DNA from: an uncultured Methanosarcinales archaeon
Lineage (GTDB): Archaea > Nanobdellota > Nanobdellia > Woesearchaeales > SM23-78
DNA length: 61,427 bases
Assembly (NCBI GenBank): GCA_964354085.1
Contig: CAYGYA010000065.1
Span: 1-61,427 of the forward strand
Direction of reading: 5' to 3'
Of the stretch, positions 17,486 to 47,945 are shown in pieces. How positions within the stretch are numbered: the stretch's first letter is position 1; each line of letters begins with the position of its first letter. A model generated the notes under the pieces. That model saw only the letters and a list, made by a program, of their open reading frames with translations. It was not told where the DNA came from and did not search any database. The position numbers were made by a program, and so were the translations under genes.

Positions 17486-19984
17486 ATGAAAAATAAAATA
17501 GAGCCTGAAGAGATGGACAAAATAAAAAAAGAGCTTATCAAAAACAAAGCTGAAATAACAGATAATGCAAGGACTGTTCTTGAAAGAAGGTACTTGATGA
17601 AGGATGAGCGTGGCAAGGCTTGTGAAACTCCTGAAGAATTATTTGCAAGGGTTGCCATTAATATAAGCCTTGCTGACAAAAATTATGATGAAAAAGCTAA
17701 CATTAAGAAGACAGCAGAAGAGTTCTATAAAATCATGCTCGATTATGATTTCATACCTAATTCTCCTACTCTTATGAACGCTGGCAGAATTCTGCAGCAG
17801 CTATCAGCTTGCTTTGTGCTGCCAATAGAGGATGACATGTCAAGCATAATGCAGACTCTTTATGATACAGTAATGGTTCATAAATCAGGAGGAGGAACTG
17901 GCTTTAGCTTTTCAAGGCTTAGGGCTAATGGCTCAAGGATAAAAACAACCAATGGAACATCGCCGGGCCCGCTCTCTTTTATCAGGATGTACAACAACAC
18001 AACAGAGGAAGTAAAGCAGGGAGGGACAAGAAGAGGAGCTAACATGGGCATCCTTAAGGTTGACCATCCTGACATTATTAATTTCATCTATGCAAAACAG
18101 GACAATACAGCAATAACTAATTTCAATCTTTCAGTTGCTGTGACTGACAAGTTCATGCAGGCAGTGAGCAAGAACCAGCATTACAATCTTATCAACCCTC
18201 ATAACAAGACCCATTTCACAATAGAACAGTTGGAATTAATCCAGTACCAGACTCACAAGGATGCTTCTGCCCTAAGGCTGAGCTCTGATAACAAGAAGAT
18301 TATTGATGTGCACACAGGTGATGAGATTGGGGTTATAAGAGATGATGCTGTTCTGCTAAGCGCAAAAAAGGTTTTTGATCTTATTGTGAGAATGGCGTGG
18401 AACAATGGAGAGCCAGGCATAATCTTTATTGACAGGATGAATGAATTCAACCCAACGCCAGCAATTGGTGAGATTGAGAGCACTAATCCGTGCGGAGAAC
18501 AGCCACTTCTTCCATATGAATCATGCAATCTTGGCTCAATCAATCTTGCAAATTTTGTAAAAAAAGGAGAATTAGATTATGAGCGACTGGGAAAAGTGAT
18601 CCATGCAACAGTGCACTTCCTGGATAATGTTATTGACATGAACAACTACCCATTAAAACATATTGAGAGCACGACTCTTTCTAACAGGAAGATAGGCCTT
18701 GGAGTTATGGGATTTGCTGACCTGCTCCTGCAATTATGCATTCCTTATAATTCTGAGAAAGGAATCAAGCTTGCAGAGAAAATTATGAAGTTCATTGATG
18801 ATGAGTCAAAAAAAGCTTCTGCTGAACTTGCAAAGGTAAGAGGAGTGTTTCCCAATTTCAAGGATAGCATTTATGACAAGAGCTCAAAGAATTTCAAAGA
18901 CAGGGACCTGCTCTTGAGAAATGCAACTACCACAACCATTGCTCCTACAGGAAGCATAAGCATAATTGCCAATGCCTCGGGAGGTGTTGAGCCTTTGTTC
19001 GCTATTGCTTTTAAGAGAAAGAACATACTGCAAAAAGGAGACGAGCTTATAGAAGTTAATCCTTTCTTTGAAAAAAAGCTAAAAGAATTGAAGATATATT
19101 CAAAAGAAATCATGGATGAGGTTTGTGAGAAAGGAACAATACATGATATTGAAAAAATTCCTTCTGATGTGAGAAAAGTTTTTGTAACCTCCCACGACAT
19201 AAGCCCTGAATATCATATAAAGATGCAGGCAGCATTCCAGAAATACACAGACAATGCAGTGAGCAAGACAGTCAACTTTCCTCATAGCGCAACAGAAGAG
19301 GACATAGCAAAGGTGTATGAACTGGCATTTGAGCTTGGATGCAAAGGAGTGACTGTTTATAGGGATGGCAGCAGGCAAGAGCAAGTGCTCAACATTATGA
19401 GCAAGAAAGAGGAGGCAAAGGAAGAGAAAAAAGAATCGCTGATCAAAAGAAAAAGGCCTCCTGTGACTATTGGAGCAACAAGAAGAGTGAAGACTGGCTG
19501 CGGCAACATGTACGTTACTATAAATCAGGATGAGAAAGGAGAGCTTTTCGAGGTTTTCAACCAGATAGGAAAAGCAGGAGGATGCGCAGATTCCCAGGCA
19601 GAAGCAATAGGCAGGCTGACTTCACTTGCTCTGAGGTCAGGCATTCATCCAAAAGAGATAATATTAGAACTAAAAGGTATAAGCTGCCATAGGCCATTTG
19701 GCCTTGGGCCTAACAGAGTATTGTCTTGTGCAGATGCTCTTGGCAGGGCTATTGAGCAGCACATGCTAGAGATGGGAGTGCACCTGCCACAGCCTCCGCA
19801 GCAAGCTGAGCTAAGTAACTACACCAAGCCAGCAGCAGAGCTTGCAGCAGAGATAGGAACTGGAGTTCCAGGTTCTGAAGAAATAAGATTGACAGGAGCC
19901 TGCCCAATGTGCGGAGGACCATTAATCAATGTGGAAGGATGCATAAAGTGCGCTGCTAACTGCGGCTATAGTGAGTGTGCTTAA
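17486..19984 (+). CDS. nrdJ: Adenosylcobalamin-dependent (class II) ribonucleotide reductase
   Basis: LSACFVL, HKSGGGTGFSFSRLR and STNPCGEQPLLPYESCNLGSINL motifs. C-terminal Cys-rich tail CPMCGG...CIKC. Length is continuous with no intein-sized insertion. Confidence 0.9.
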   Translation: MKNKIEPEEMDKIKKELIKNKAEITDNARTVLERRYLMKDERGKACETPEELFARVAINISLADKNYDEKANIKKTAEEFYKIMLDYDFIPNSPTLMNAGRILQQLSACFVLPIEDDMSSIMQTLYDTVMVHKSGGGTGFSFSRLRANGSRIKTTNGTSPGPLSFIRMYNNTTEEVKQGGTRRGANMGILKVDHPDIINFIYAKQDNTAITNFNLSVAVTDKFMQAVSKNQHYNLINPHNKTHFTIEQLELIQYQTHKDASALRLSSDNKKIIDVHTGDEIGVIRDDAVLLSAKKVFDLIVRMAWNNGEPGIIFIDRMNEFNPTPAIGEIESTNPCGEQPLLPYESCNLGSINLANFVKKGELDYERLGKVIHATVHFLDNVIDMNNYPLKHIESTTLSNRKIGLGVMGFADLLLQLCIPYNSEKGIKLAEKIMKFIDDESKKASAELAKVRGVFPNFKDSIYDKSSKNFKDRDLLLRNATTTTIAPTGSISIIANASGGVEPLFAIAFKRKNILQKGDELIEVNPFFEKKLKELKIYSKEIMDEVCEKGTIHDIEKIPSDVRKVFVTSHDISPEYHIKMQAAFQKYTDNAVSKTVNFPHSATEEDIAKVYELAFELGCKGVTVYRDGSRQEQVLNIMSKKEEAKEEKKESLIKRKRPPVTIGATRRVKTGCGNMYVTINQDEKGELFEVFNQIGKAGGCADSQAEAIGRLTSLALRSGIHPKEIILELKGISCHRPFGLGPNRVLSCADALGRAIEQHMLEMGVHLPQPPQQAELSNYTKPAAELAAEIGTGVPGSEEIRLTGACPMCGGPLINVEGCIKCAANCGYSECA

Positions 19985-21112: not shown

Positions 21113-21829
21113 ATGGTTTACTGGCTCGAGTTCGTTTACAGCCCACCAGGGTTCTATGGCAAGGACATAGCAATAGATGTCCTTAGCGCTATTGTCGTGC
21201 TCTTAATCGGAATATTCAGTTTCAGGAATTTTTCCCTTGACAAAAGAAATAAAAAACACTTGTTCCTGGGAGCTGCTTTTGTTCTGCTCGGATTATCATT
21301 TATAGTGAAGATTATGACCAACATACTTTCTCATGCAGAAGAATGGTCTTCAAAACCATTCCTGATTCCAATGTTCGGGGGGGATATACTTACGTCATAT
21401 TCCCTAATACCCGCGTTAGGTTTCCTCCTTTATGCTCTCTTAACGCTATTCGGCTTTTACATTATATATGCACTATCATCAAAAGATGAGTTATCAATGA
21501 ATTATCTGATAATCGCTTATTTCATCCTCATATCAACCTATTTCACCAGATTCACCTACTTTATTATTTACCTAACTGCCTTTATCTTTGTTCTAGCGCT
21601 TTCTAGGAGATATTTCCTAGAATACAAGAAGAATAGCTATAAGAACACTCTTTTTTTGTGCATAAGTTTTAGCATAATAACCCTGAGCCAGTTTGTCTTC
21701 ATATTTACAGCAACAAACCACATGCTCTATGTTCTTGCAGAGTTCATCCAGCTGATAGGCTATCTTTTCCTTCTCTACACATTTGTAATGGTTCTGAGGA
21801 ATGCAACAAATGCAACGAAAACGAAGTAG
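21113..21829 (+). CDS. Polytopic membrane protein, unknown function
   Basis: 238 aa with 6-7 hydrophobic segments. Confidence 0.45.
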
Positions 21830-22082
21830 ATTAGACATCGTGTATGATATGCTCCTAACTATTGGAAATAAAGGAGGAAGAATTAAGCCAACCCATTTGA
21901 TGTACAAAGCCAATCTTTCTCATACCCAGATGAGACTTTATCTTGATGAGTTAATACAAAAAAATCTTGTTGAAGAGCAGGCAAAGGATGAAAGAAAAAT
22001 GCTGGTTCTTACAGAAAAAGGATTTGCCCTTATCCAGAAGTTCAATCAGATGAAAGAATTCGAGAAGACTTTCGGTCTCTAA
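21801..22082 (+). CDS. Small winged-helix DNA-binding protein
   Basis: [48 protein letters not shown] is a wHTH pattern. The start is probably at 21810. Confidence 0.55.
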
Positions 22083-22106: not shown

Positions 22107-22826
22107 TCAAGGAGTCGGAATCGGGATTGGGGCCAAAGGCATTATATTCATCCTGACACAGGATGGTTCTGGAGGTGGAGAGATTATTTGATTAATATAG
22201 CAGCCGCTTGTTGAATTCTCAACCCAGCTGCTGTCGATTATTTCACTAAAATCTTGATGCCACAATCCGTACACTGACACATTTATGCTTACAATCTTAT
22301 TTATTCTTGACCAGTTAGTATCAAAAGCACTGAAGAAATAATTTGATCTGAAATTAAGCCTTATCGAATCATAAGTGAGCTGCTCTGCACTTTCAAGCCT
22401 GTAACTGAAGCTTGCATTATCTAATTTAAAGGAAAGGGTTGCTAGTGATTGCTGAAAATTCTCATTTGTAGCTAGCAAGGGATTGATGCGCAAGCCAGAA
22501 TCGCTGTCAAAACCATTTGTCATCAAATCAATTAGCTGGCTCCTATTAAAAGGAGAATCCCTGGTCAGGTTAATCAAGGCAGGCTTGGCTGCTGTCTGCA
22601 ATATATTCTCTGCATAGTATCTGTCAAAATCCCTTACAAAATGGTCCATGATAATTATTTTTACTCTTTCAACATGGAACTCCTCATCCTTTTTCAACAC
22701 CTGTGCCTTGCTGTTAAAAACAATCACCAAGAAAATCAGGAACAATACTGCTGAAATAGAATAAAATACTCCTTTCTTATTCAGTCTAGTCAGCCTACGT
22801 GTTTTTCCCATCATTCTTTCATCCAT
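22107..22826 (-). CDS. Pilus-operon protein with possible class III (prepilin-like) signal
   Basis: N-terminus ...RLNKKG/VFYSISAVLFLIFLVIVF. Overlaps the preceding giant gene by 16 nt and is the last gene of the operon. Confidence 0.5.
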   Translation of the reverse strand: MDERMMGKTRRLTRLNKKGVFYSISAVLFLIFLVIVFNSKAQVLKKDEEFHVERVKIIIMDHFVRDFDRYYAENILQTAAKPALINLTRDSPFNRSQLIDLMTNGFDSDSGLRINPLLATNENFQQSLATLSFKLDNASFSYRLESAEQLTYDSIRLNFRSNYFFSAFDTNWSRINKIVSINVSVYGLWHQDFSEIIDSSWVENSTSGCYINQIISPPPEPSCVRMNIMPLAPIPIPTP

Positions 22827-25800
22827 ACTTTTGCTATAAAAATATATGGACCTTTGCTAAATACAAAGCCATCTTTTTCATAATATCCAGTGACTGCTCT
22901 TGAGCCAGCAATGAGCAAGGTTGAGTTTGGCTCATAGCTAAGCTCTCCAATGTAGTAATGGAATCTTTTTAGTTTAGGGCATATTCTTACATAATCTTGA
23001 GAAGGGTTATGATACTCATCAAAGGTTATTTTGATTACTGAGCCATTTTCAGTGCCATGAGTAATATTAGTAAGATTGGTTATATAGAAAGTTGTTGCCT
23101 GGGTTCCTGAAGAAGGAGACCCTCCAAACCCGTCAAAAGTTGTAAAATCAGCTGCATATGTAAGATGATGTAAGGTAAAGCCCGAGAGCAAGTAGCTGGA
23201 TATATAGTCAGATACTCTTACTGGTGCATATGGGTCAGTAACCCAGATTTCATTGTCAAGACAACCTGATGAATTCAAACCTTCGAAATCCCCTGAATCT
23301 GCATAAGCTTCACAAATTGGATTGTCACATTTTGAATCGAGATTAAGGACAGTCACATTGCACGAGTCCGAATCAACACCTTCATCAGTAGTTACTCTAA
23401 TATTAACAGTTTCTAATGTTGCATCATTAGATGTTATGCTAATGCTACTTGGAAGATTATCATTTATTGTAATAGCAGAAATGTGAGGATGAGAAATGCT
23501 AATTATCCCCCCTGTGTCTCCGTTAAAAATATTGCTAAGGTTGATAATAAGGGGTTGTCCTGTGTGTAATAAGTAATTGGGAATTGATGACTCGCAGTGC
23601 AAGGGATTTGGTATACAATCTCCCATGGTGCATGTTGCTAAGTCGCAAGTTCTTGTTCCCTCATGCCCTGCTCCCGTATTACAATCTTCAGGCGGAGTGG
23701 TTGCATCGCAACTAGCTCCGCACTTGGCTACTGAGCAATTAAGAGCCTCTCCAAAAACATCATATGCGCATGTGCACAGATCACTGCAGTCTCCGTAAGA
23801 GTCTCTTGCTGCTATCTTTGGTCCAAAGCACTGTTCAATAGATTGGTTGCAATCAGTGTTATTGTTAGTGCTTGGAAGTTCGCATGATTCTGGCGGGTTA
23901 GTGATGATGTTATCTCCACAGCTTAGAGTTGTAGTGCATATGTTCCAGTTGCAATTGGTTTCATCACAAGTTTGAGTTCCAGGATAGCCATCTATTGTGT
24001 TGCACGGCTGGCTTGTTCCATTTGTGCAAATAGCTCCGCATATGCCCGCTATGCAGATTGGTTCACTCCAAGTATCATTAACACATCCGCAATTAGCATT
24101 ACAGTTTCCATATAAGTCTCTTGTCCTCGCTTTCGGAGCATCTGTGCAGTTCTCTGCGTCTTGGTTGCAATAGGCATTATTTACTGTGTTGTTTCTTTCG
24201 CATTGCTCTATTTGCTGGTTTATGGTTCCGTCCCCACACTTTCCTGTTGGTGTGCATGTGTTCCATTGGCATGTTGTGATGTTGCAAGCCTGTATTCCTG
24301 GGAATCCTCCGGGTACTGGGCATTGCCGGGTTTGTCCATCGCTGCATTCTGCTCCGCATTTGTTTGCTGTGCAAATGGCTGTGCTCCATGAGTCATTGTA
24401 GCACTCGCATATGCCATTGCAGTACCCTATCTGGTCTGGTCTTGTTGCTAGTCTTGGCCCGTCACAGCTTTCATTATCTTGATAGCAGTTTGAGTTTTTT
24501 TGATTATCATTTGGCTCGCATTGTTCTGTTTGTTGGTTTATGGTTCCATCTCCACAGCTTCCCAGGGCAGTGCATGTGTTCCATTGGCATGTTGTGGCGT
24601 TGCAGTCTTGTATTCCTGGGAATCCTCCTGGTACTGGGCAGTTCTGAGTTTCTCCGTAACTACATTCTGCTCCGCATTTGTTTGCTGTGCAAATGGCTGT
24701 GCTCCATGAGTCATTGTAGCATTCGCATATGTTATCGCAGTTTCCTACTCGATCTGGTCTTGTTGCTAGTCTTGATTCGTCACAGCTCTCATTGTCTTGT
24801 TGGCAGTATTGGTTGTTTTCGTTATTATTTGGTTCGCATTGTTCTCCTGCCTGATTTATTGTGCCATCTCCACATACACCTAGTGGTCTGCAAATATTCC
24901 ATTGGCATGTTGTGATGTTGCAAGCCCGTATTCCAGGAAATCCTCCTGACATCGGGCAGTTCTGAGTTTGTCCATCGCTGCAAATAGCCCCGCACTTGCT
25001 TGCTACACAAAGTGCAGCACTCCACGAGTCATTGTAGCATTGACATTCATTATTGCAATTACCAAAAATGTCTGGCCTTGTTGTTAATTGTGGTCCCACG
25101 CAGCTCTCATTTTGTTGTGAGCAATAAGGGTTATTATCATTATTGCTGGGCTCACACTGCTCTCCGGCTTCTCGCACGTTATTTCCGCAATATAGAGCGC
25201 ACCCTGCATAACTCACATTGATGCATGACATAGTTGATGCTCCCCAGGGGTCTGATATGTTAAAGAAAAAAGTTCTCCAGAATGGGTTCTGCAAATAAGC
25301 TGAATCAACTAGGAAGGCTAATTGCCTGGCAGTGTTAAAGTTATTATTGTAAGTGAAGTGAGAACCCCCTGATGATTCCATTAAGTAATTATTATACCGC
25401 CAAGTTAAAGTATTCAAAGGATCATTTGCATCAGTTACTAGGCCCGTATTCTCATCATCAATGCCTACGTAAGCGACGTCTTGATCACAGAGCATTGGCA
25501 CAAAAAGGCAATTCCCAATTGGGGGATAATTGCCAACAGGAGGCACGTTTATCTCGATGAATAATTCGGAAAGATTAAGCATTCCAACTGTGAGTGAATA
25601 GACTGAAAACCTGATGTCGCAGGGACTGAGAGTGCACTGGGCTAGATTATCCTGCACAAGGCTTCTGAAATCATTGCAATTGGCACCACTGCCACAAGAG
25701 GCACCATTCCAAAGGACATTACCATTATATAAGTCAGGATAGCTCCAGCCAAAGATATTTGAAGGGCTGGTAGAGCGTATTGTGGGCGTTGTGAGATTGG

Positions 25801-26692
25801 TTGTTTCTATTATTTCGGAAATGTTATTGTAAATGTCAATTAAAGCCTGGCCAGTTGAGGCATTAAAGTACAATCCTCCTTTGGTTTGATTTGAAACATT
25901 CTGCATGAATGAGCAATGAGCAGTAGTTCCCCCCCCGCCTGTAGTGTATGTTGTGCCACAACCTCCAAATGAGATTGCGAAAATAGTGATGTTGCTGCTA
26001 TTAGCAGTTCTAGCAAGGCTTAATATCCATGCTTCTGCTGCTCTATTAGTGTCAGAGTTATCTGCGCATGAACCACTTGAAAGGCAATTTGGCCATCCAT
26101 CAGTCATCAACAAAATATATTTCTTAGTGCCCACTCTCTGTGCTCTTACGCTGTTCAATTCATTTATTGCAAGCTGTAGAGCTGCTCCTAGGTTTGTATA
26201 CGAACCAACACGGTAATTGTTTATTGAATTGTCAAGTGTCACCTTGTTTGTTATCAGGGGTTGGTTTAGAGTAGCAACTGTTGAATAATTGACAAGTCCT
26301 ACCTGAATATAATTGGTGTCAACATTGCTGATAAAACTTCTATCAGCTGCCTGTGCACTAACTAACTTTACTACTCCTTGAACCGCTTGACCCATGCTTC
26401 CAGATAAATCTGTAACAATAATGACGTCCCTTGGCAGACCTTTGAGTCCTTGCATATTAAAGCCCTGTATTCTCATCCTTGCCTCAGCTACTGTTCCGTT
26501 GGGAACCCTTACAAAGAAAGTCTTAGTCATGAATTCTTGTGTGAAAGTCAGGTTTAGGGAGCTTAAGCTGGTGTTGAAAAGAGTTATCTGAGCGCTAGTT
26601 AGTTCATAGCTTAATGCAAATAAAGCCATGATTGCAATAGCAATGAATAATGCTTTGCTTGCCTTATTTGTTGAATTGGTTATTTTGCTCAT
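22811..26692 (-). CDS. Giant (1293 aa) secreted vWA-domain protein with five 106-aa cysteine-rich repeats; putative pilus-associated adhesin
   Basis: N-terminal hydrophobic signal. vWA with MIDAS residues (IIVTDLSGSMG, SYTNLG, LLMTDGWPN) at about 25958-26431. Five repeats begin at CG[DN]G/N...EQCEP. Confidence 0.85.
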   Translation of the reverse strand: MSKITNSTNKASKALFIAIAIMALFALSYELTSAQITLFNTSLSSLNLTFTQEFMTKTFFVRVPNGTVAEARMRIQGFNMQGLKGLPRDVIIVTDLSGSMGQAVQGVVKLVSAQAADRSFISNVDTNYIQVGLVNYSTVATLNQPLITNKVTLDNSINNYRVGSYTNLGAALQLAINELNSVRAQRVGTKKYILLMTDGWPNCLSSGSCADNSDTNRAAEAWILSLARTANSSNITIFAISFGGCGTTYTTGGGGTTAHCSFMQNVSNQTKGGLYFNASTGQALIDIYNNISEIIETTNLTTPTIRSTSPSNIFGWSYPDLYNGNVLWNGASCGSGANCNDFRSLVQDNLAQCTLSPCDIRFSVYSLTVGMLNLSELFIEINVPPVGNYPPIGNCLFVPMLCDQDVAYVGIDDENTGLVTDANDPLNTLTWRYNNYLMESSGGSHFTYNNNFNTARQLAFLVDSAYLQNPFWRTFFFNISDPWGASTMSCINVSYAGCALYCGNNVREAGEQCEPSNNDNNPYCSQQNESCVGPQLTTRPDIFGNCNNECQCYNDSWSAALCVASKCGAICSDGQTQNCPMSGGFPGIRACNITTCQWNICRPLGVCGDGTINQAGEQCEPNNNENNQYCQQDNESCDESRLATRPDRVGNCDNICECYNDSWSTAICTANKCGAECSYGETQNCPVPGGFPGIQDCNATTCQWNTCTALGSCGDGTINQQTEQCEPNDNQKNSNCYQDNESCDGPRLATRPDQIGYCNGICECYNDSWSTAICTANKCGAECSDGQTRQCPVPGGFPGIQACNITTCQWNTCTPTGKCGDGTINQQIEQCERNNTVNNAYCNQDAENCTDAPKARTRDLYGNCNANCGCVNDTWSEPICIAGICGAICTNGTSQPCNTIDGYPGTQTCDETNCNWNICTTTLSCGDNIITNPPESCELPSTNNNTDCNQSIEQCFGPKIAARDSYGDCSDLCTCAYDVFGEALNCSVAKCGASCDATTPPEDCNTGAGHEGTRTCDLATCTMGDCIPNPLHCESSIPNYLLHTGQPLIINLSNIFNGDTGGIISISHPHISAITINDNLPSSISITSNDATLETVNIRVTTDEGVDSDSCNVTVLNLDSKCDNPICEAYADSGDFEGLNSSGCLDNEIWVTDPYAPVRVSDYISSYLLSGFTLHHLTYAADFTTFDGFGGSPSSGTQATTFYITNLTNITHGTENGSVIKITFDEYHNPSQDYVRICPKLKRFHYYIGELSYEPNSTLLIAGSRAVTGYYEKDGFVFSKGPYIFIAKVWMKE
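23612..25189 (-). repeat. Five tandem coding repeats, period 318 nt (106 aa)
   Basis: Repeat starts are at residues C502, C607, C713, C819 and C925. A 59-nt run is identical at a 318-nt offset (from 24345 and from 24663). Confidence 0.85.
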
Positions 26693-26709
26693 TTCTTTCT
26701 CTTTTGTTT

Positions 26710-27210
26710 CTATTGTGGATTATGATAAGTCTCTGTATTGTATAATTCCAGGAGCGGCGCTGCGCCGCCTTGGTAGAGCAGGGCAAAGCCGAATCTTTTC
26801 TCATCTATCACATTCTTTTTAGCAAATACTTCCTTGATAGCATCTCTTACAACCTCACCAGGGCAGTTGCCTGTGGTGATTACTTCGCTCATCATTGAAA
26901 GCAGGTTTCCATTATCATCTTTTAGCTGTCCCATGCATGGCGAGTTGCTGCATACTATCTGTGTAAGATTCTTGTAGTTTGGGCAGTCACAGCCAGGCTC
27001 ACTAATATTAGTGCACAGGTCATTCATTTGGGTGTAGGATAATACCCCGATGATATCCTCGGATAATTGCTCTGTGAAGTAAATAGTCTTATTTCCCGAA
27101 ATAAAATTATAGAATATGATGCCAATGCCCACTATTAGGATAATTATCGCAATTGTCAGGTCCAAGGTAAACATATAAGCTTTTTTATTCATTCTAATCA
27201 TTTTCTTCAT
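26710..27210 (-). CDS. Pilin-like protein (class III signal peptide)
   Basis: N-terminus MNKKA/YMFTLDLTIAIIILIVGIGIIF. Confidence 0.55.
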   Translation of the reverse strand: MKKMIRMNKKAYMFTLDLTIAIIILIVGIGIIFYNFISGNKTIYFTEQLSEDIIGVLSYTQMNDLCTNISEPGCDCPNYKNLTQIVCSNSPCMGQLKDDNGNLLSMMSEVITTGNCPGEVVRDAIKEVFAKKNVIDEKRFGFALLYQGGAAPLLELYNTETYHNPQ

Positions 27211-27222
27211 TTTTCATTCTCT

Positions 27223-27828
27223 TTATCTCTTACACATCACTATGTTCATTTGCAGTATTCTATTCCTACTATAATCTTTCTCATCAAATAACACTGGCTT
27301 GAAAAGGGATATTGCCTGCTTGTAAGCGTCGCACGGGTCATTGCCTGAAATAATCATTTCCTGATTGCAAGATCTGCCTGTTTTCCTTAGCTGGCCAAGC
27401 ACTTTTACTTCTGGCGGGCCTGGAAGGATAGTTAGTATTGCATTATTATTGTCTGTAAAGTACAGGCATACATCATGGCTTGCTTCATCCAAGCCAATGC
27501 CGTGGCTCTCACCAACTATTCCAATAACATAGGAATTAATGCTGCCTGAGCCAATGGCTGAAGCAAAGTTTTCTAGCCTTGTCTTGTCAACTCTATAACC
27601 TGCAAAGAAATCTCTCTCAGCAGCGCCAAACTTCAAATTATTCTCAAGATTGGCAAACACGTACTCAAGCTCAAAATCTGGCTTTTTCTCGCTGTTTTGG
27701 CTTAGAAGAAAAAGGCCCATAAATATTACTATGAAAATTACAAAGATAATAAGGCTGCTGCTAAAGTCAAAAGTTATTATTTGGGCTTTTTTCGCGTTCC
27801 TGAGACTAAATAATGGTTTGTTTTTCAT
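27223..27828 (-). CDS. Pilin-like protein (class III signal peptide)
   Basis: N-terminus RNAKKA/QIITFDFSSSLIIFVIFIVIF. Confidence 0.6.
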   Translation of the reverse strand: MKNKPLFSLRNAKKAQIITFDFSSSLIIFVIFIVIFMGLFLLSQNSEKKPDFELEYVFANLENNLKFGAAERDFFAGYRVDKTRLENFASAIGSGSINSYVIGIVGESHGIGLDEASHDVCLYFTDNNNAILTILPGPPEVKVLGQLRKTGRSCNQEMIISGNDPCDAYKQAISLFKPVLFDEKDYSRNRILQMNIVMCKR

Positions 27829-27840
27829 TCTATTTTCATC

Positions 27841-28281
27841 CTAAATCTCTCTCACAACTTCAATTGATAAATTGTTAGTGGCTGCGTTCTTTCTGATTAT
27901 TAGTTCCTTAATAGGCCTGCCTGGATTAAGGTCATTTACTGAGCTTATTATTGGCAGGAAAACCCTGGCCAGCTCCTCACGATCATAACCATCTTTGATA
28001 ATCAGCATATTATCTGGATAAGCACGAAGCTCAATCTGAATCCTGGCACTGTTAATCCTGTTAGGAATGATTATTTCTGTTACAAAATCTGATTCTGAAA
28101 GAGAGGCTGTTATGGCTTTCACCTTAATGTCCTTAGCCAGGTTTTCAGCAAGCCCTTTTGTAGATGATGCCTTGTCAACGCTGCCGGGAAAAAATCCAGC
28201 CAAGAATATGAATATGAAGAAGACAATGGTGAACAATACAATAAATTCAAAAGATATCTGTGCTTTTTTCATTCTAATCAA
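27841..28281 (-). CDS. Archaeal type IV pilin-like protein (Q+1, DUF361-type signal)
   Basis: N-terminus MIRMKKA/QISFEFIVLFTIVFFIFIFL. Confidence 0.7.
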   Translation of the reverse strand: MIRMKKAQISFEFIVLFTIVFFIFIFLAGFFPGSVDKASSTKGLAENLAKDIKVKAITASLSESDFVTEIIIPNRINSARIQIELRAYPDNMLIIKDGYDREELARVFLPIISSVNDLNPGRPIKELIIRKNAATNNLSIEVVREI

Positions 28282-28852
28282 TAAGTGGGATGATATTAAC
28301 CTTTACCTCGTTACTGCCAGTATTATCATATTTGGTCTCTAGCTTGAATTTCTTTTTTCCAGGATGAATCACACTATCCTTAAAATTATAGAAATTACAT
28401 GATGAAGAAGCACACTCAGCTATATACACTGAGCTGTCTGAGTTGTCAACATACATGGAATTAGGGTCAGATGCAAGAGGAACTGACATTAAAGGGACAT
28501 CTGATGGAATAAAATACTTGCTTTCTTCTTTTCCATTGTTTATTATAATTCCAATATAATAATACTTCCTGCCGGTGCCAGTCTGGTTGAATTCTAGTAT
28601 AAAAAACCTTTTTACATTATCAGGAACATCATAGGTTACTATTTTCTTTGAATAAAGTCCAAGATAATACATTTGTTTTGCATTTTCTACCAGGCCATTG
28701 CCCAGGTCATTTGCTTTCTGAGTGCTGACTGTGCCGTACACGCTCTTATTGGCAAAAGAGAAAAGAAAGATGGCAGAAGGAACAATTATTATCAGCAGGA
28801 TAAACCCAGTCAAAATCAGGTATTCCATGGATATTTGAGCCTGTTTTGACAT
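28274..28852 (-). CDS. Archaeal type IV pilin-like protein
   Basis: N-terminus MSKQA/QISMEYLILTGFILLIIIV. 8-nt overlap with the next gene. Confidence 0.7.
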   Translation of the reverse strand: MSKQAQISMEYLILTGFILLIIIVPSAIFLFSFANKSVYGTVSTQKANDLGNGLVENAKQMYYLGLYSKKIVTYDVPDNVKRFFILEFNQTGTGRKYYYIGIIINNGKEESKYFIPSDVPLMSVPLASDPNSMYVDNSDSSVYIAECASSSCNFYNFKDSVIHPGKKKFKLETKYDNTGSNEVKVNIIPLID

Positions 28853-28928
28853 GTATACCTACCTCTTTTTTTGCTTTACCACACCCTCACAAAAATTAAA
28901 AAAATACAATAAATATTTTTTATCAAGC

Positions 28929-29447
28929 TTATGAAGCTTTTATCCTAATAGAACCTGTTGATTCCTGAGTGATTGCGCCTTCAGTGAATTTGTACTGTGT
29001 TGTCAAAGTGCCCCTAAGCAGCTTGCCTGCCATTGCATCAGTAGTATCAATAGTCACCTTTGCAATTTCTCCGGGTGGCAATGAAACACAGTCAGCGCAC
29101 GTACCAATTTGTTCGTCATTGTATGTGGCGTCTGCATCAGCTGATGTTTTTGTACCGCTAAACTGCACTGATGATTTGTCTGTAACAGATATTTTTAATG
29201 TATCAACTGGTTTCTGTCCTATGTTCCTTATGCCAAGCTCAATTGTGTGGGTTGAGGCAACAAAACTCCATTCCTCGCACTTAAGGTCGCTACCAGTGCC
29301 TCCGAGGTCACACTTGTCAGGAAGATAGCTTCCCAAGTCCAGGATGTTGAAATACAGCAGTCCTCCAATCACAGAAAGCGTAACCAATATTACCAGACCG
29401 TAGATGATCATGGTTTCAATTGATAGCTGGGCTCTTTTGTTCTTCAT
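28929..29447 (-). CDS. Archaeal type IV pilin-like protein (candidate major pilin; has its own upstream AT-rich region)
   Basis: N-terminus MKNKRA/QLSIETMIIYGLVILVTLSVIGG. Preceded by a 177-nt intergenic region with TATA-like elements. Confidence 0.7.
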   Translation of the reverse strand: MKNKRAQLSIETMIIYGLVILVTLSVIGGLLYFNILDLGSYLPDKCDLGGTGSDLKCEEWSFVASTHTIELGIRNIGQKPVDTLKISVTDKSSVQFSGTKTSADADATYNDEQIGTCADCVSLPPGEIAKVTIDTTDAMAGKLLRGTLTTQYKFTEGAITQESTGSIRIKAS

Positions 29448-29543
29448 TTTTCACGCACCTCTCTAACTTTTTTAGTTCATTCTATTTATATTAACTATCT
29501 TACTATTTAAATTATTGATACTAACTATATTTAAAAGTTTCGC

Positions 29544-29621
29544 TTAAGTCTTTGCCAAAGACTTAACAGAAACAAATTAAGGAGGGTGTGCCAAAAACAT
29601 TTAGGTTTTTGTCAACCCTCC
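29544..29621 (-). terminator. Two perfect hairpins immediately downstream of the thiolase-like gene stop
   Basis: TTAAGTCTTT-gcc-AAAGACTTAA (29544-29566). GGAGGGT..CAAAAAC-atttag-GTTTTTG..ACCCTCC (29581-29621), beginning 3 nt after the stop codon at 29625-29627. A T5 run is embedded in the stem. Confidence 0.5.
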
Positions 29622-29624
29622 GAA

Positions 29625-30653
29625 TTATCTCCTGATAATAATGGCTCCTGATGAGCAGTCATAGTTGGCTGTTACCAAGGCTATGATGTCAAGGTTTCTT
29701 AGATTAGGGTTTTTCAGGGTATAATGTAGGTTGTATAGAATGTCTGCATGGCCCAAGTGACCGTTTTCTGATGAGGTGTTAAAAATCCTGTCAGGAGTGA
29801 TGTTGAGCTTTTTGCACAGCCTCTCTGTCTCTTCTAGTGAAAGCTGGGTTTTTATGAAATGGTTTATGTCAGAAACATCAAGATTTATTGATTTCATGCA
29901 TGACTCAATCACCTTGTAGGAATTCTCAACCCACCTTTCTGTTAGCTTGCTCATGCTCTGCTTTTGCCTTATGGTCTTAACCACAGCTATGCTCCTAAAC
30001 TTTTCAAAAACCCTGTGTAGCTTGCTATCCTTGGCAAGGCTTTCTGCTAATAATTCATCAATAAAGCTAGTATTATGGTCGATCACAAAATTAGAAGTAA
30101 GTATCTTGTTATTGTTAGCTTCCTTGCTTAGCACTATGGCTGCTGCTCCATCACCAAATATCATGTTTCTAACTCTTGCAGCTCCTCCTCCAAAAAGGTA
30201 CAGCTCATCAAACTCCTGGGCAGCAACTATGATGGCATTTTTAGTAGAGTAATTGTTTTTAATCATATCATTGGCTATCTGAATGCCTAGCAGGCCACCT
30301 ATAAGTCCTCCTTCAATGTCAAAGCCATAGGCTTCTGTCGCATTGATCTCCTGGATGATTTGCGAAGATATGGTTCTTGCGGTTTTCTGCCTTGTGATCC
30401 CTTTGCAGAATATTACCACATTAATGTCCTTAGGGCTCAAATTTGAGTCGCGCAAGGCTTCCTCTGTGGCCCTGATTGCCATGAAGAGCTCGCTTTCACT
30501 AGGGCTGGCCACATGTATTCTTTTTATGCCATGGTCCTTAAGAAGCTGAAGATAATTAAGATGATATTTCTGTGCGAGCTGCTTGACCTCTACTTCCTGC
30601 CTTGGGAAATAGGCTCCGCTTCCACTGATTCCAATCATATTTGAAGTTGGCAT
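29625..30653 (-). CDS. Thiolase-fold (KAS III / HMG-CoA synthase-like) protein lacking the expected catalytic Cys
   Basis: FabH-like N-terminus and FGDGAAAIVL motif. The nucleophile site reads FDIEGGLIGGLLG, with Leu where FabH has Cys by eye alignment to D.SAACSGF. Confidence 0.5.
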   Translation of the reverse strand: MPTSNMIGISGSGAYFPRQEVEVKQLAQKYHLNYLQLLKDHGIKRIHVASPSESELFMAIRATEEALRDSNLSPKDINVVIFCKGITRQKTARTISSQIIQEINATEAYGFDIEGGLIGGLLGIQIANDMIKNNYSTKNAIIVAAQEFDELYLFGGGAARVRNMIFGDGAAAIVLSKEANNNKILTSNFVIDHNTSFIDELLAESLAKDSKLHRVFEKFRSIAVVKTIRQKQSMSKLTERWVENSYKVIESCMKSINLDVSDINHFIKTQLSLEETERLCKKLNITPDRIFNTSSENGHLGHADILYNLHYTLKNPNLRNLDIIALVTANYDCSSGAIIIRR

Positions 30654-30712
30654 GTTGGGCTAACCTTTTAGCTGAACTATAAATATTTTTTTTCTTTGCA
30701 AAAAATCAAAAA

Positions 30713-31840
30713 TTAAATATTGAACATTGAGAAGAATAATTCGAATATGGTCAAACATATCCTGTAGCTGATGACTGAGCAGGCAGCAAAGAGCACCACT
30801 TGCTTGTAACCTTCCTTGATAGAGCCTGTTTTTATTATTGATATTATCATCGCAGTGCACACTGACATTATGATCAGGGCTAGGGCTGAGAACCACATGA
30901 AATGGCTGTTATTTACTCTAACTGCGTTTATGCTGATGGGGAGGATTACATTGGATGAAACCTCTGAAATAGTGCCTGTTATTGACTTGATGAGGGAAAT
31001 AAGGTGATAGGACAACGCAAACATGGCAGGAGCAATCAATATGGTCACAATTGACAGGAATATCCTGTAGCTGGTAACGCTTGCAACAACTTTCTTTTTA
31101 AGATATCTTATCATCTCCAGGTTTTCATAAAGCCTGTCAACTAGTTGGGATGTGGTTCCTCCTTTTTTCCAGCTGGTAACCATTAGGTCAAAGGTCTCAT
31201 TGATAATATCAGAATCAAAGCTTTCTGTGAATTCCTTTATAGCGACTTCGATATCTATTCCGAGCCTGACTTTCTTGTATACCCTCTCCATTTCTTGGCC
31301 AAGATAGCCGAATTCTTTTTCTGTTGAATTGCCAATTGCCTCATCCAAGTTTTGGCCTGATTTCAGGTTAAGCGCGAGCTCTGAGAGGAATTCGGGAAAG
31401 ATTTCTTCCATTTGCCTGACTTTATAATAGATCTTTGCTTCAAGATACAGTTTATACATGATGATGATGGCCAGGGAGATAATGGTAAATATGACTGGCA
31501 GCAACAAAAGGAACAGGAACGGGATAGCGAATGAGGCATTTACAAATAATTCTGTTGTCATTAGAATTACATCAAGGATAACTGATATAAGAAAAATTAT
31601 GATTGTTGCCACGCCATATGAAAAGTAAGGCACTCCTTCTATGCTTGCCCGCTCGAGGTATTTCAAAACACCTTTCCTGTATTTCTTAGGGATTATCCCA
31701 TCCCCCAGGCCCTCAATAAATAATCTAAGTTTACTTTTTCTTTTAGGTTCAGAATCCTTCTTAGTAGGATTATCATCTTTTTTATCAGGGTTATCGCTAA
31801 GGTTTTTTTCATCCCTGTTGACAAGGTCATCTTTACTCAT
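30713..31840 (-). CDS. Type II secretion system F-domain membrane protein (TadC/FlaJ-like)
   Basis: T2SS-F style cytoplasmic domain (LKSGQNLDEAI...) flanked by TM helices. 4-nt overlap with the upstream gene. Confidence 0.75.
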   Translation of the reverse strand: MSKDDLVNRDEKNLSDNPDKKDDNPTKKDSEPKRKSKLRLFIEGLGDGIIPKKYRKGVLKYLERASIEGVPYFSYGVATIIIFLISVILDVILMTTELFVNASFAIPFLFLLLLPVIFTIISLAIIIMYKLYLEAKIYYKVRQMEEIFPEFLSELALNLKSGQNLDEAIGNSTEKEFGYLGQEMERVYKKVRLGIDIEVAIKEFTESFDSDIINETFDLMVTSWKKGGTTSQLVDRLYENLEMIRYLKKKVVASVTSYRIFLSIVTILIAPAMFALSYHLISLIKSITGTISEVSSNVILPISINAVRVNNSHFMWFSALALIIMSVCTAMIISIIKTGSIKEGYKQVVLFAACSVISYRICLTIFELFFSMFNI

Positions 31841-32661
31841 AGTTTCACCAGCGGTCGCGTGCTTTTGAATATCCTTACAAAGAACAGCTGCAGAATCAGG
31901 ATTAGGATTAGCAGGATGAACAGGCTTGGAAAGAATTCCACTTTTATCCCTGCTACAGACATGATTATTACCACTCCGACAATGCCAATTGCTGGGAGTA
32001 TGGTGCCAAAAATCATGTAAAACATTGAGAGAGGGTTAAGCCTCTTCTCGTACTGTTCAATCTCGACAATCTTATTCTGGGAAAGCTCTTGCAGCGTAGC
32101 AAGCAGGTTCTTTTGTATGTCTGTCCCTGTCTTCAAAGACTTCTTGATGGGCTCCATGACCATGCGAAAGCTGTCGCTCGGAGTATATTTGATAGCATCC
32201 TCTATGGCTTGGTCAACATTTTTTCCAAGGTATATTTCTGAAGCTATTTTCCCAAAATACTTGCTTGACTTGGCTTTTGTATAAGAAACGCTTTCTAGCG
32301 CAGAAATAAGTGAGTTGCCTGCTTCAAGGAGAGTGAGAAGCATCCTGCTCGGAACAAAAATGTCGCTCTCAATCTCCTGTCTTACCTTGGCTATGTTGAG
32401 CTTAGGTATGCTTTTGAACATTAGAAAAAAGACAATAAAAAAGAAAGCAAAAGCAGGAATGGTCAATAGGTAAAGCCCTTGTTTAGACAGCACAAAAAAT
32501 ACCACAACTGAAAAGTTTAATGCAAATATGAAAGCCAGAATTAAGCACTTGTTGATAAATGAAACTACATTAGCATCCATTTGTGCTAATTTAAGGTTTT
32601 CCTTAAGCTTAGGAAAGAGCCTGTTGATAAAATCTTCAGTCTGATCCTGTATTTTTATCAC
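31837..32661 (-). CDS. Type II secretion system F-domain membrane protein (TadB-like)
   Basis: LLEAGNSLISALESV... domain plus TM helices. Overlaps the ATPase gene by 26 nt. Confidence 0.75.
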   Translation of the reverse strand: MIKIQDQTEDFINRLFPKLKENLKLAQMDANVVSFINKCLILAFIFALNFSVVVFFVLSKQGLYLLTIPAFAFFFIVFFLMFKSIPKLNIAKVRQEIESDIFVPSRMLLTLLEAGNSLISALESVSYTKAKSSKYFGKIASEIYLGKNVDQAIEDAIKYTPSDSFRMVMEPIKKSLKTGTDIQKNLLATLQELSQNKIVEIEQYEKRLNPLSMFYMIFGTILPAIGIVGVVIIMSVAGIKVEFFPSLFILLILILILQLFFVRIFKSTRPLVKL

Positions 32662-34534
32662 CGCCGCTGAAAAGTTTTTTCATAAGATAATCCTTGTTGA
32701 TATAGTAGTAGCTTATCATAAGAGCTATTTCTTCATTGTTAGTTATCTTGTTGTCTGTCAGGTATTTCAGAATCTTTATCTTGTCATTGATTTCCTTGTC
32801 AACCTCTGACTTGTCCAAGCCTGCAAAGAGCTCTATAGTCTTGTAGAACATGTAAGGATCCTTGACTTTCAGGAGCTTGTCTGCCTTAAAATTATAGTTG
32901 AACAGCAGAGTATAGTCCCCGTTTTCCAGCACTTCAGCCACTTGGAAGGTTCTTCTGGTGTTAGTTCTCCTGTTCCTGTTCTGCACAAATATCAGGTCAA
33001 TTGCTCCGAGAAGAGATTTGGCTATTCCAATTGGCTCTGTGGTGAGCCTGATGATAGCCTCATTCACGGTGTTGGCGTGCAGAGTAGCATATACACTATG
33101 ACCTGTGTGCATTGCCTCGAACAAAACCTCTGCCTCTTTTTTTCTCCTTATCTCTCCGACAATAATCCTGTCAGGCCTCATTCTTAATGAGTTAATAATA
33201 AGGTCAAGCATAGATATCTCTCCCTTGCCTTCAGGATTAGGAAGCCTGGTCTCCATAGGCACCCAGTGCAAAGTTCTTGGAAGCCTGATTTCTCTTGTAT
33301 CCTCTATGCTTACAATTCTCTGAGTCGGCGGGATAAATATGCTGAAAACATTCAAGGTTGAGGTTTTACCAGAGCCAGTTCCTCCAACAATAAGTATTGA
33401 GAGCTCGTACTGCATGGCTGTCCATACCAAAGCTGCAGTGTAATAATCAATTGTATTCGTCATGATGAAATCAGTGATTGACCATGGAGACTCTGCGAAC
33501 TTCCTGATAGTCATGGTATTGCCCTTGGTGCTTATGGGAGCAAGAGTAGCATTGACCCTGTCCCCTGATTTTAAGTGGGCGTCCATTAATGGTGTGAGTG
33601 TGGTTATCATCTTGTCCACGTTCCTGCCTGCAAGAGTGGAGTAATGAACAATCTCTGCTTCATCATCAATAATGACATTAGTCTCAAGCCAGCCGTATTT
33701 CTTATGGTAAACCCATATTGGCTCAAAAGCATTGTTAATAACAACCTCTTCAAGATGCTTGTCTCTCAGCAAGAACTCAATCTCACCCATGCCAAGGCTA
33801 GTTAGGACAATATAGTCGCTGAAAATATGAATCCTGTCCTCTGAAAGGTCTGGGAAAACCTCTTTCATTATTCCAAGGATTTTTCTCTTATATTCATTCC
33901 TTACCATGTTCTCTTCTTCATGGCTCTTGAAGACAATGTTAAAAGTAATCTTGCTAATAACATCCTCCTTGATCTTATCAATAACCATGCGTGTTATGTC
34001 GCTTATCCTTAGCAACGATATCATGTAGAAAGGCACAGGCTCAAGCTCCTGCTTAACAATTTCAACCTCAACCACCATGCTCTCGACATCAATGTTATAG
34101 CTGTCAATCTTGGTGATAGGGTCTTTTATTTTCTTGTCAAAGCTTTTCATGAAATTCTCAACATAGTACTTGCGAACACTAACATAAGTTTCCTTGGTCT
34201 CAGCATCATCCCTGTGCTTAAGATACCTATACAAGTCATAAATGAGCTTGTTTGCTGCCTTGACGTTCTGGAAGCTTTTGAAAAACTTTAACTTATTGAC
34301 CAGTTCGGTCTCATCAACATGCTTGAACTCTGGCTCAGGAGTCTTAACATACTTAATAGCAGCGCCCTTGACATTCTTATAATCAAGCTCAACAAAGCCT
34401 AATTGCTCAAGATACCTGGCAATCTTAATCACGCTAGATGATGGAATGCCCAATTCCTTTGCCAGGCTAAGCACATAAGCCTTCTTTTTTTGTTCAACAA
34501 TATCGAACAGAGTATCTATTTTAGTCAAGAACAT
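32636..34534 (-). CDS. Type II/IV secretion ATPase (archaeal FlaI/PilB family) with N-terminal wHTH-like extension
   Basis: Walker A GGTGSGKTSTLN. SIEDTREI, PDRIIVGEIR and HTGHSVYATLHAN boxes. Confidence 0.9.
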   Translation of the reverse strand: MFLTKIDTLFDIVEQKKKAYVLSLAKELGIPSSSVIKIARYLEQLGFVELDYKNVKGAAIKYVKTPEPEFKHVDETELVNKLKFFKSFQNVKAANKLIYDLYRYLKHRDDAETKETYVSVRKYYVENFMKSFDKKIKDPITKIDSYNIDVESMVVEVEIVKQELEPVPFYMISLLRISDITRMVIDKIKEDVISKITFNIVFKSHEEENMVRNEYKRKILGIMKEVFPDLSEDRIHIFSDYIVLTSLGMGEIEFLLRDKHLEEVVINNAFEPIWVYHKKYGWLETNVIIDDEAEIVHYSTLAGRNVDKMITTLTPLMDAHLKSGDRVNATLAPISTKGNTMTIRKFAESPWSITDFIMTNTIDYYTAALVWTAMQYELSILIVGGTGSGKTSTLNVFSIFIPPTQRIVSIEDTREIRLPRTLHWVPMETRLPNPEGKGEISMLDLIINSLRMRPDRIIVGEIRRKKEAEVLFEAMHTGHSVYATLHANTVNEAIIRLTTEPIGIAKSLLGAIDLIFVQNRNRRTNTRRTFQVAEVLENGDYTLLFNYNFKADKLLKVKDPYMFYKTIELFAGLDKSEVDKEINDKIKILKYLTDNKITNNEEIALMISYYYINKDYLMKKLFSGGDKNTGSD

Positions 34535-41648: not shown

Positions 41649-41703
41649 TAAAATAATTTTTCTTTTTTTTGTTTTTTATATATGAATTGAGATTAGGAAA
41701 GTA

Positions 41704-41815: not shown

Positions 41816-41917
41816 AATATCCCAGGAGATATTTACCATTTAAAAAGGTTATTGTTTTTTCGGTTTATATTCTGCTTTAGTTAAATTTAAATAGAATAAT
41901 GCTTATTTCTCTTATTT

Positions 41918-45236: not shown

Positions 45237-45274
45237 ACACTGCTACTCTATTATTCCATCTCATCAAAGCAATA

Positions 45275-46297: not shown

Positions 46298-46371
46298 ATT
46301 TTTCTCCTCCGATTCATGTTTTTTTTATGATTCTTAATTTATTTTATGTAATCATTATTTTATTTTTATTA

Positions 46372-47929: not shown

Positions 47930-47945
47930 AATAACACCTCATTTC

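Follow-up and report, generated by a model that had tools for sequence, protein, structure and literature searches.

Archaeal type IV pili of the 'system 1' or clade 1 type are encoded by loci that combine an ATPase, two platform genes, at least five minor pilins and large putative tip adhesins, and have been reported in methanogens, Thermococcales and DPANN archaea (PMC4858521; bioRxiv 10.64898/2026.04.22.720090). Bacterial Tad pili are in turn thought to be derived from archaeal Epd-like pili (PMC6668835). Here, we analyzed a cluster of 11 tightly packed minus-strand genes at positions 22107-34534 of contig CAYGYA010000065.1, the whole 61,427-nt stretch of which is called the window below, and propose, with a probability of roughly 65%, that its products form an archaeal type IV pilus of the Epd/Tad-like ('system 1') kind, onto which a modular adhesin that is not itself a pilin docks via its C-terminal strand. 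All 11 open reading frames (ORFs) that a first-pass annotation had placed there on the minus strand are present in the ORF list of the window. The source is a DPANN lineage of the Woesearchaeota/Nanoarchaeia type, and the carrier is a tiny, uncultivated and probably host-dependent archaeon. Recognition of and attachment to hosts or surfaces are largely unexplained in DPANN archaea, few of which are cultivated, and the locus offers a concrete candidate with three parts: a constant machine, a constant 'adaptor' made of the C-terminal module of the adhesin and the pilin-like protein encoded after it (p239), and an exchangeable binding head.

Like the system 1/Epd pili of Methanococcus maripaludis (Makarova et al. 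2016; Sivabalasarma & Albers 2026), the cluster has one secretion ATPase, two platform genes, at least five minor pilins with class III signals and Gln at +1, and, within the locus, a putative adhesin that is large and secreted. The features by which system 1 is recognized, namely two platform genes and many DUF361-type pilins with Gln at +1 (PMC4858521; bioRxiv 10.64898/2026.04.22.720090), are found here. It departs from system 1/Epd in that the adhesin has no DUF2341/PilY-like domain and is built instead of a domain of the von Willebrand factor A (vWA) type, 14-Cys modules and a family-specific C-terminal module, in that an EppA peptidase, a MinD/FleN ATPase and a major pilin of ~70 aa are all missing from the window, and in that the pilus genes are accompanied by a conserved FabH-like protein devoid of its catalytic triad. 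In Epd organisms, the small major pilin and the EppA peptidase are often encoded elsewhere. The locus is moderately novel, as a lineage-restricted version of an archaeal pilus type that is already known; the new elements are the cassette of modular adhesin and adaptor, the strain-level hypervariability of that cassette, and a predicted thiolase-fold pseudoenzyme as a conserved extra component of an archaeal pilus cluster. The genes are as follows.

32636-34534, minus strand: assembly ATPase of the FlaI/TadA/GspE2 type, 632 aa (PF00437, E 7.6e-36)
31837-32661, minus strand: platform protein of the N-terminal-half type, TadB-like, 274 aa (PF00482, E 2.9e-9)
30713-31840, minus strand: platform protein of the C-terminal-half type, TadC-like, 375 aa (PF00482, E 2e-15)
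29625-30653, minus strand: FabH/KAS III-fold protein, 342 aa (Pfam ACP_syn_III N- and C-terminal domains)
28929-29447, minus strand: pilin 1, 172 aa, KRA/QLSIET (class III motif conserved in orthologues)
28274-28852, minus strand: pilin-like 2, 192 aa, KQA/QISMEY, with the Flp-like G/XXXXEY pattern (motif conserved; PF04021 E 0.0011, below cut-off)
27841-28281, minus strand: pilin-like 3, 146 aa, KKA/QISFEF (motif conserved; PF04021 E 5e-4, below cut-off)
27223-27828, minus strand: pilin-like 4, 201 aa, KKA/QIITFD (motif conserved in orthologues, including that of the distant locus L008)
26710-27210, minus strand: pilin-like 5, 166 aa, KKA/YMFTLD (motif conserved)
22811-26692, minus strand: putative adhesin, 1293 aa (PF00092 E 3.7e-15, PF13519 E 8e-12)
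22107-22826, minus strand: p239, pilin-like, KKG/VFYSISA (motif conserved in orthologues)

Assembly machinery and class III proteins

Proteins of the window were compared with Pfam, PDB and NCBIfam profiles, and those of the pilus cluster gave no NCBIfam match at the equivalog cut-off. The ATPase has an N-terminal extension of ~190 aa, its closest PDB structures are A. fulgidus GspE 2OAP (7e-70), FlaI and CpaF, and its PF00437 match agrees with its first-pass annotation as a FlaI/PilB-type enzyme. The TadB-like gene overlaps the ATPase gene by 26 nt and the TadC-like gene overlaps the TadB-like gene by 4 nt; their products cover positions 3-248 and 270-540, respectively, of the 555-position FlaJ model. 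Since one protein aligns to the N-terminal half of FlaJ and the other to its C-terminal half, the platform is split, as expected from the earlier description of separate TadB- and TadC-like T2SS-F proteins, both of which match PF00482. A GspE/FlaI/TadA-family ATPase, a GspF/FlaJ/TadBC-type platform and class III-type subunits, three of the components that characterize type IV filaments, are present, and homology points to an assembly machine composed of the ATPase and the two-gene platform, serving six proteins with conserved, predicted class III-type N-termini, in each of which a hydrophobic helix comes after the cleavage site.

These N-termini were sought with a motif and hydrophobicity scan in all six frames of the window and, barring a few unrelated hydrophobic ORFs, are confined to the pilus cluster. 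The five signals quoted beforehand are all in place and conserved among orthologues, neither the scan nor the orthologue comparison refuted them, and a sixth stands on the last gene, p239, which had been described as a final pilin-like protein. Cleavage-site motifs are kept in orthologues down to 22-33% identity (L008), reading [KR][GA]/Q(L/I)(S/T)xE in pilin 1, .../Q.S.E[YF] in pilin-like 2, K[AS]/Q.S.EF in pilin-like 3, K[AG]/Q...[FL]D in pilin-like 4, [KR][AG]/[YF].[FY]T[LV]D in pilin-like 5 and K[GS]/[VIM]F.S, with no acidic residue, in p239. Gln at +1 with Glu at +5 is the pattern of DUF361/Epd and Flp-like pilins.

The adhesin, its C-terminal module and p239

The 1293-aa protein between pilin-like 5 and p239 has the following parts, some of them seen in AlphaFold2 (AF2) models of aa 36-520 and aa 1020-1293 that were built on shallow alignments (14-17 sequences).

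Adhesin aa 1-35, minus strand: predicted Sec signal peptide with a conserved (S/Y)-A-Q site
Adhesin aa 36-88, minus strand: conserved beta segment
Adhesin aa 89-296, DNA 25805-26428, minus strand: vWA domain with intact metal-ion-dependent adhesion site (MIDAS) (Pfam, AF2)
Adhesin aa 297-500, minus strand: conserved post-vWA region
Adhesin aa 502-1030, DNA 23603-25189, minus strand: five 14-Cys modules
Adhesin aa 1031-1247, DNA 22952-23602, minus strand: two immunoglobulin (Ig)-like domains (AF2)
Adhesin aa 1248-1293, DNA 22814-22951, minus strand: conserved C-terminal tail ending GPYIFIAKVWMKE

A short hydrophobic stretch leads up to the conserved (S/Y)-A-Q site, and [KR][GA] occurs in some homologues only, which suggests that the N-terminus is a Sec signal and not a pilin signal; a class III signal on the adhesin itself (SKA/LF) was rejected, as that site is not conserved and the Sec-type (S/Y)AQ site is. 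At E<=1, VWA and VWA_2 are the sole Pfam matches. The MIDAS residues D95, S97, S99, T166 and D198 show no variation across the aligned homologues, which together with the PF00092 and PF13519 matches upholds the annotation of a MIDAS-intact vWA protein. In the AF2 model of aa 36-520 the vWA domain is confident and the very conserved aa 36-85 and 297-392 are unplaced, and the structures matched by the modeled vWA fold are those of integrin I-domains and of SpaC, Streptococcus sanguinis PilB and Mfa5, which are pilus tip adhesins. Five disulfide-rich modules had likewise been noted, and we find that they begin at aa 502, 607, 713, 819 and 925, are 105-106 aa long and hold 14 Cys each, in a protein that totals 88 Cys and 38 N-x-S/T sequons. 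A 318-nt tandem repeat at 24198-25123 on the minus strand (~2.4-2.7 copies, 77-81% identity) corresponds to the 106-aa 14-Cys modules; at this identity, about three modules arose by recent duplication, and the spread of homologue lengths from 955 to 1644 aa indicates that stalk length is variable. The CGDG...EQC[ED] idiom said to be common to the adhesin and the cohesin-bearing giant at 466-5205 holds as a short CG[DN]G...GE[EQ]C[ED] motif. Deeper kinship between the two was rejected, since this DUF4215-like motif is all they have in common. An exact-sequence look-up of the window adhesin returned no record.

The C-terminal module (last 274 aa) is rare and is the part that defines the protein. 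A word-indexed search with this domain gave 3 fragments only, and an exhaustive hidden Markov model (HMM) profile search was needed, which covered 1.84 billion proteins and recovered the module from no more than 41 representative clusters. In 40 of these, the matching region runs to within 3 residues of the C-terminus (P0052, the weakest hit, matches internally), with the tail consensus GP[YF]IF[TI]AKVW[LQ]R[KE] among carriers. Formerly described as a ~260-aa region of unknown fold, the module is now predicted by AF2 to form two Ig-like beta-sandwiches (predicted local distance difference test [pLDDT] ~90), and a fold search with this model returned generic Ig-like matches only, at low TM-scores. 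The last 46 residues, the best conserved of the whole protein, still have no place in the fold and are left as unplaced strands with pLDDT <50, as expected if the segment would fold on a partner.

Most carriers of the module have the N-terminal vWA set, and others present different heads: an SGL/NHL beta-propeller in P0020, DUF4215 with PA14 in P0027 and P0042, an internal vWA with a SpaA-like domain in P0040, and cysteine-rich sequence only in P0032. The tail is kept in proteins that have no pre- or post-vWA segments (P0020, P0027 and P0032); being present where segments like aa 36-88 and 297-500 are absent, it is independent of them. Propeller- and PA14-headed proteins occupy the same slot in the cluster, after the same pilin-like orthologues and before the p239 orthologue. 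In the window the adhesin stop overlaps the candidate p239 starts (...GTATGGATGAAAGAATGATGG), and in each of the 20 distinct loci where the 3' end of the tail-bearing gene is visible, a p239 homologue follows it directly (overlapping or at <20 nt). What stays constant is the C-terminal module together with p239, and not the vWA head. A PDB profile search with the p239 family gave noise only. p239 has no acidic residue at +5/+6, and GspK/PilK-type tip subunits likewise have none there. By analogy with such subunits, we propose p239 as the acceptor and anchor of the adhesin tail; the upstream 166-aa pilin-like protein could be an alternative acceptor.

The bacterial precedent for such docking comes from Ellison et al. 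2026, in which the last ~10 residues of PilC/PilY1 give a PilK-type minor pilin its final beta-strand in trans, with MshQ doing the same by modeling, and GspK and TadG/CpaL providing the final strand in cis (PMC13533445); Archaea are named in the introduction of that paper only. Like PilC/PilY1 and MshQ of the bacterial type IVa and MSHA pili, the adhesin is a large, non-pilin, Sec-exported protein whose gene lies beside minor pilins, and its strictly conserved extreme C-terminal strand suggests in-trans beta-strand addition to a minor pilin. Its N-terminal vWA domain resembles that of P. aeruginosa PilY1. Unlike PilY1, it has no beta-propeller and no Pfam PilC/PilY1 domain (Pfam E<=1), and its C-terminal region is Ig-like by prediction; membership of the PilY1 family was rejected for want of the propeller and the PilY1 domain. 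Also unlike in PilY1 and MshQ, the gene of the proposed partner lies downstream here and upstream in bacteria, the machine is archaeal Tad/Epd-like, and docking is inferred. With TadG/CpaL the adhesin shares a position past TadE/TadF-like minor pilins, as a large vWA protein of a system with a TadB/TadC split platform. TadG and CpaL are, however, pilin-like at the N-terminus and supply their strand in cis, while p239 and the Sec-signal adhesin are separate genes here, and TadG-family membership was rejected because the adhesin has no pilin-like N-terminus, an unconserved [KR][GA] site and no TadE Pfam match. S. sanguinis PilB and the sortase-pilus protein SpaC, which were among the best fold matches of the vWA model, place a MIDAS-containing vWA domain at the pilus tip. 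In contrast to the adhesin, PilB is a true pilin with a grafted vWA domain, SpaC is polymerized covalently by sortase, and neither has a cysteine-module stalk or a C-terminal tail module.

Linkage to the pilus genes and a hypervariable cassette

We found 15 homologous adhesin clusters in a set of 5.8 billion proteins, and their contigs carry the same gene cluster; a single-protein pattern scan of GTDB genomes found nothing, and alignment-based and degenerate-DNA scans reached only ~8 metagenome-assembled genomes (MAGs). Many of the loci have common flanks, with CofD on one side and HTH_45, a six-transmembrane (six-TM) protein, CobA and ribonucleotide reductase on the other, and such loci alone are not proof of functional linkage, because the flanks are shared too. 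In L008, machinery, pilins, vWA giant and p239 are kept amid unrelated flanks with an ATPase that is 49% identical, and BLAST found no homologue of the 146-aa pilin-like 3 there. The order is circularly permuted in L011, L024, L033, L034, L037 and L040, where it reads FabH-like, pilins, adhesin, p239, ATPase, TadB, TadC. Because the cluster is kept in three gene arrangements, the linkage between the giant and the pilus genes is genuine. The adhesin thus passes the co-conservation check, staying with the pilus genes under unrelated flanks and in permuted order, and the first-pass view of a pilus-associated vWA protein gains support from it.

This linkage bears on the possibility that the adhesin is an ordinary Sec-secreted surface or S-layer-associated protein, co-regulated with the pilus and filament-independent, whose tail anchors to the envelope or to the protein itself. 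Such a protein would bear a Sec signal instead of a pilin signal, as this one does; the structural models, being of monomer fragments, give no evidence of docking, and the window encodes other disulfide-rich surface giants that follow a cohesin/dockerin logic. Nevertheless, the gene is wedged among pilin-like genes, with a 17-nt spacer to the upstream pilin gene and a start/stop overlap with the downstream pilin-like gene, adhesin and p239 stay paired whatever the gene arrangement or the type of head, and no envelope anchor is recognizable in the C-terminal module, which lacks both a TM segment and a PGF-CTERM-like end. We regard a filament-independent adhesin as unlikely.

Comparison with a near-identical strain (L029/L030) separates the cluster into a constant and a divergent part. 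Protein identity to the window is 99% for the ATPase, 97% for the TadB-like, 97.6% for the TadC-like and 97.6% for the FabH-like protein, and then falls to 81% for pilin 1, 78-79% for pilin-like 2, 61% for pilin-like 3, 55% for pilin-like 4 and 58% for pilin-like 5, with 74% for the N-terminal and 41% for the C-terminal part of the adhesin and 59% for p239. At the DNA level, the comparison with 22107-32947 of the window gave 94-99% over the ATPase, TadB, TadC and FabH-like genes and 57-86% across the pilins and the adhesin, the drop setting in from ~29648 (FabH-like/pilin spacer); the far flank is 87% identical. This strain carries a different adhesin allele of 1510 aa (P0008). With the machinery near-identical and the pilin-p239 cassette divergent, the extracellular module has been exchanged or diversified independently of the motor, a divergence that we take as typical of exposed, specificity-determining structures.

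The same variability weighs against a vWA protein that serves assembly or anchoring at the base of the pilus instead of acting as a ligand-binding adhesin. TadG-type vWA proteins have been hypothesized to be membrane anchors of pili (cited in PMC4858521) and PilY1/CpaL-type proteins are required for assembly (PMC13533445), and a basal factor would follow these precedents. In this family, however, the head is interchangeable with PA14 and beta-propeller domains, which are typical ligand-binding domains, the stalk varies in length through tandem repeats, and the cassette is hypervariable between near-identical strains. Head swapping, stalk variation and cassette hypervariability together argue for an exposed binding function, leaving a purely basal role highly improbable; a part for the adhesin in priming assembly is compatible with the docked, pilus-borne adhesin that we favor.

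In most relatives one more gene, coding for 148-215 aa, separates the 166-aa pilin-like gene from the adhesin gene, as in L001 (9509-9988), L003 (9457-10035), L005 (7816-8463), L008 (9387-9983) and L037 (2705-3151); both products read (L008 and L037) have an N-terminal membrane anchor, and the gene is absent from the window, L012 and L029/L030.

Transcription units

The first-pass annotation treated the cluster as one operon. Its tight minus-strand packing stands, with an overlap or a spacer of <=17 nt at most junctions (pilin-like 3 overlaps pilin-like 2 by 8 nt); a single transcript does not, and two or three units are probable from a hairpin, a promoter-like element and a T-run. The longer spacers are those between the TadC-like and FabH-like genes (59 nt), between FabH-like and pilin 1 (177 nt) and between pilin 1 and pilin-like 2 (76 nt), so that no spacers in the cluster are longer than the two that border pilin 1, and long spacers flank its orthologue on both sides in relatives too. 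A bacterial sigma-70 and intrinsic-terminator scan is uninformative for an archaeon, and the spacers were read by eye.

29581-29621, minus strand: hairpin followed by a U-rich tract, directly 3' of the FabH-like stop (minimum free energy -20 kcal/mol, z -4.5)
29526-29542, minus strand: element cgAAACTTTTAAATATA resembling a B recognition element (BRE) and TATA box, ~80 nt 5' of the first pilin gene (read from sequence)

None of 200 shuffles was as stable as the hairpin, which probably ends the first transcription unit. By its resemblance to the known consensus, cgAAACTTTTAAATATA may be an archaeal BRE/TATA promoter; it is followed by a ribosome-binding site, GAGAGGTG, ahead of pilin 1, and a T-run, TTTTTTTAATTTTT, lies at 28891-28904, past the pilin 1 stop. 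Because of the hairpin, the BRE/TATA-like element, the T-run and the long spacers around pilin 1, we read the cluster as three units: a first that would hold the machinery genes and the FabH-like gene, a second that is probably pilin 1 alone, strongly expressed, and a third in which pilin-like 2-5, the adhesin and p239 appear tightly coupled. Pilin 1 is accordingly placed as the candidate major pilin.

This arrangement also bears on whether the machine builds a long filament at all. It might instead build a short pseudopilus, of a type II secretion- or bindosome-like kind, that displays or releases the adhesin, with the six class III-type proteins as pseudopilins. No small Epd-type major pilin is present in the window, the pilin-like proteins are all 146-239 aa with globular parts, and there are documented archaeal type IV filament systems in which class III proteins are functionalized for binding (bioRxiv 10.64898/2026.04.22.720090). 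However, the promoter-like element and terminator-like T-run that pilin 1 has to itself fit a highly expressed major subunit, and two platform genes, at least five minor pilins and a large adhesin match the system 1 loci that form pili (PMC4858521). On balance we judge a pseudopilus to be decidedly unlikely.

Proposed mechanism and its weight

We propose that an Epd/Tad-like pilus carries the adhesin, probably at its tip, in the following way. A prepilin peptidase encoded elsewhere would cleave the class III proteins after [KR][GA]. Pilin 1, with its own TATA-like element and T-run terminator, would supply the bulk of the filament, unless the genome encodes a small major pilin at another locus, and the remaining pilin-like proteins would form an initiation or tip complex. 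The adhesin would be exported by Sec, cut at the conserved (S/Y)-A/Q site and oxidized into a disulfide-rich stalk, and would then be held on the pilus by its near-invariant extreme C-terminal strand GPYIF(I/T)AKVW, completing the beta-sheet of p239, the product of the overlapping downstream gene. Through the metal ion of its intact MIDAS, the vWA head would recognize a ligand on a surface or host cell, and head swapping (vWA, beta-propeller and PA14) together with the hypervariable pilin-adhesin cassette would tune specificity. The docking logic of PilY1 and MshQ is invoked because the adhesin is large, Sec-exported, encoded among minor pilins, furnished with a near-invariant C-terminal strand and paired with p239; by this analogy, its tail may dock onto a pilin-like protein.

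Several points weigh against this proposal. In agreement with the earlier statement that none lies there, no prepilin (class III) signal peptidase gene was found in the window, which also has no ORF for a small ~70-aa Epd-type major pilin without a globular domain; the peptidase may be encoded elsewhere in the genome. The Pfam class III matches (PF04021, two genes) are both below threshold, and the 'system 1' assignment follows gene content and not ATPase phylogeny. Both AF2 models are of monomer fragments, and the docking between tail and p239 is what we infer. The low pLDDT of the tail could stem from the shallow alignment or could reflect packing on another part of the same protein. In bacteria, the gene of the PilK-type acceptor lies upstream of PilY1/MshQ, so the acceptor could be the 166-aa protein and not p239. 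Finally, most loci come from one lineage with common flanks, and independent observations are fewer than loci.

If the C-terminal strand does dock into p239, the bacterial beta-strand-addition rule would extend to Archaea, in support of its antiquity, and the signature ...GPYIF[TI]AKVWLR[KE]-COOH followed by a p239-like gene could be used to find pilus-borne adhesins in metagenomes. A wider version, in which archaeal Epd/Tad-like pili load a swappable Sec-exported adhesin on p239 by PilY1/MshQ-like in-trans strand addition as a mechanism ancestral to type IV filaments, with the cassette as a DPANN module for host or ligand specificity and the thiolase-fold pseudoenzyme as a cytoplasmic component of the machine, is offered tentatively, as a conjecture on which we would not rely.

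The FabH-like protein

The first-pass annotation of a thiolase-fold protein holds for the fold, given the ACP_syn_III domains, and not for a catalytic triad, which is absent: alignment to FabH 2EBD shows Cys replaced by Leu, His by Thr and Asn by His. These positions are L/F/M, T/S and H in 36 of 36 aligned clade members (35-98% identity to the window protein), and the ordinary FabH matches P0089-P0091 retain C, H and N. The clade adjoins pilin genes in three different gene arrangements, and its distant members include P0088 (35% identity, L040 9001-9954), within a permuted cluster, and P0086 (L041 2628-3650), in divergent orientation next to pilins; in L008, a 449-aa protein occupies the FabH-like position. 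Judged by its residues, the protein is a conserved, pilus-linked pseudoenzyme, and a role as cytoplasmic scaffold or regulator would be a guess.

Genomic context

The MAGs of the relatives are labeled Candidatus Nanoarchaeia, Candidatus Woesearchaeota or 'Euryarchaeota archaeon SM23-78', and those of L008, L011 and L024 'uncultured Methanosarcinales archaeon', which may reflect mis-binning, mislabeling or transfer. Convergent to the pilus cluster lie a conserved six-TM protein gene (21113-21829, plus strand) and an overlapping HTH_45 winged-helix gene (21801-22082, plus strand), a pair that is syntenic in closer relatives and absent beside permuted or distant clusters. The six-TM protein, the only unassigned polytopic membrane protein of the window, was considered as a cryptic GxGD peptidase for its size, its six TM segments and an 'FGGD' motif, and was rejected, since 'FGGD' is not conserved and the protein has no Pfam or PDB match.

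Elsewhere in the window, three consecutive surface-protein genes occupy 466-8452 on the plus strand, encoding a 1579-aa protein with a cohesin at its C-terminus (466-5205), one of 406 aa that combines a MopE-type metal-binding motif with a dockerin, and a 659-aa protein with a cohesin. A DsbB-family disulfide-bond-formation membrane protein (12804-13376, minus strand; PF02600, E 1.6e-12) fits this genome, because several very cysteine-rich secreted giants are encoded there. The large subunit of ribonucleotide reductase in the window (17486-19984, 832 aa) has no intein, and its counterpart in L005 (15399-19052, 1217 aa) carries one with a LAGLIDADG endonuclease. No tRNA genes were detected in the 61,427-nt window, which has an isolated 5S rRNA gene at 41701-41817 on the minus strand. 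A probable surface glycan cluster, mostly on the minus strand, fills 42438-60966 and opens with genes for UDP-glucose dehydrogenase and a polysaccharide flippase.

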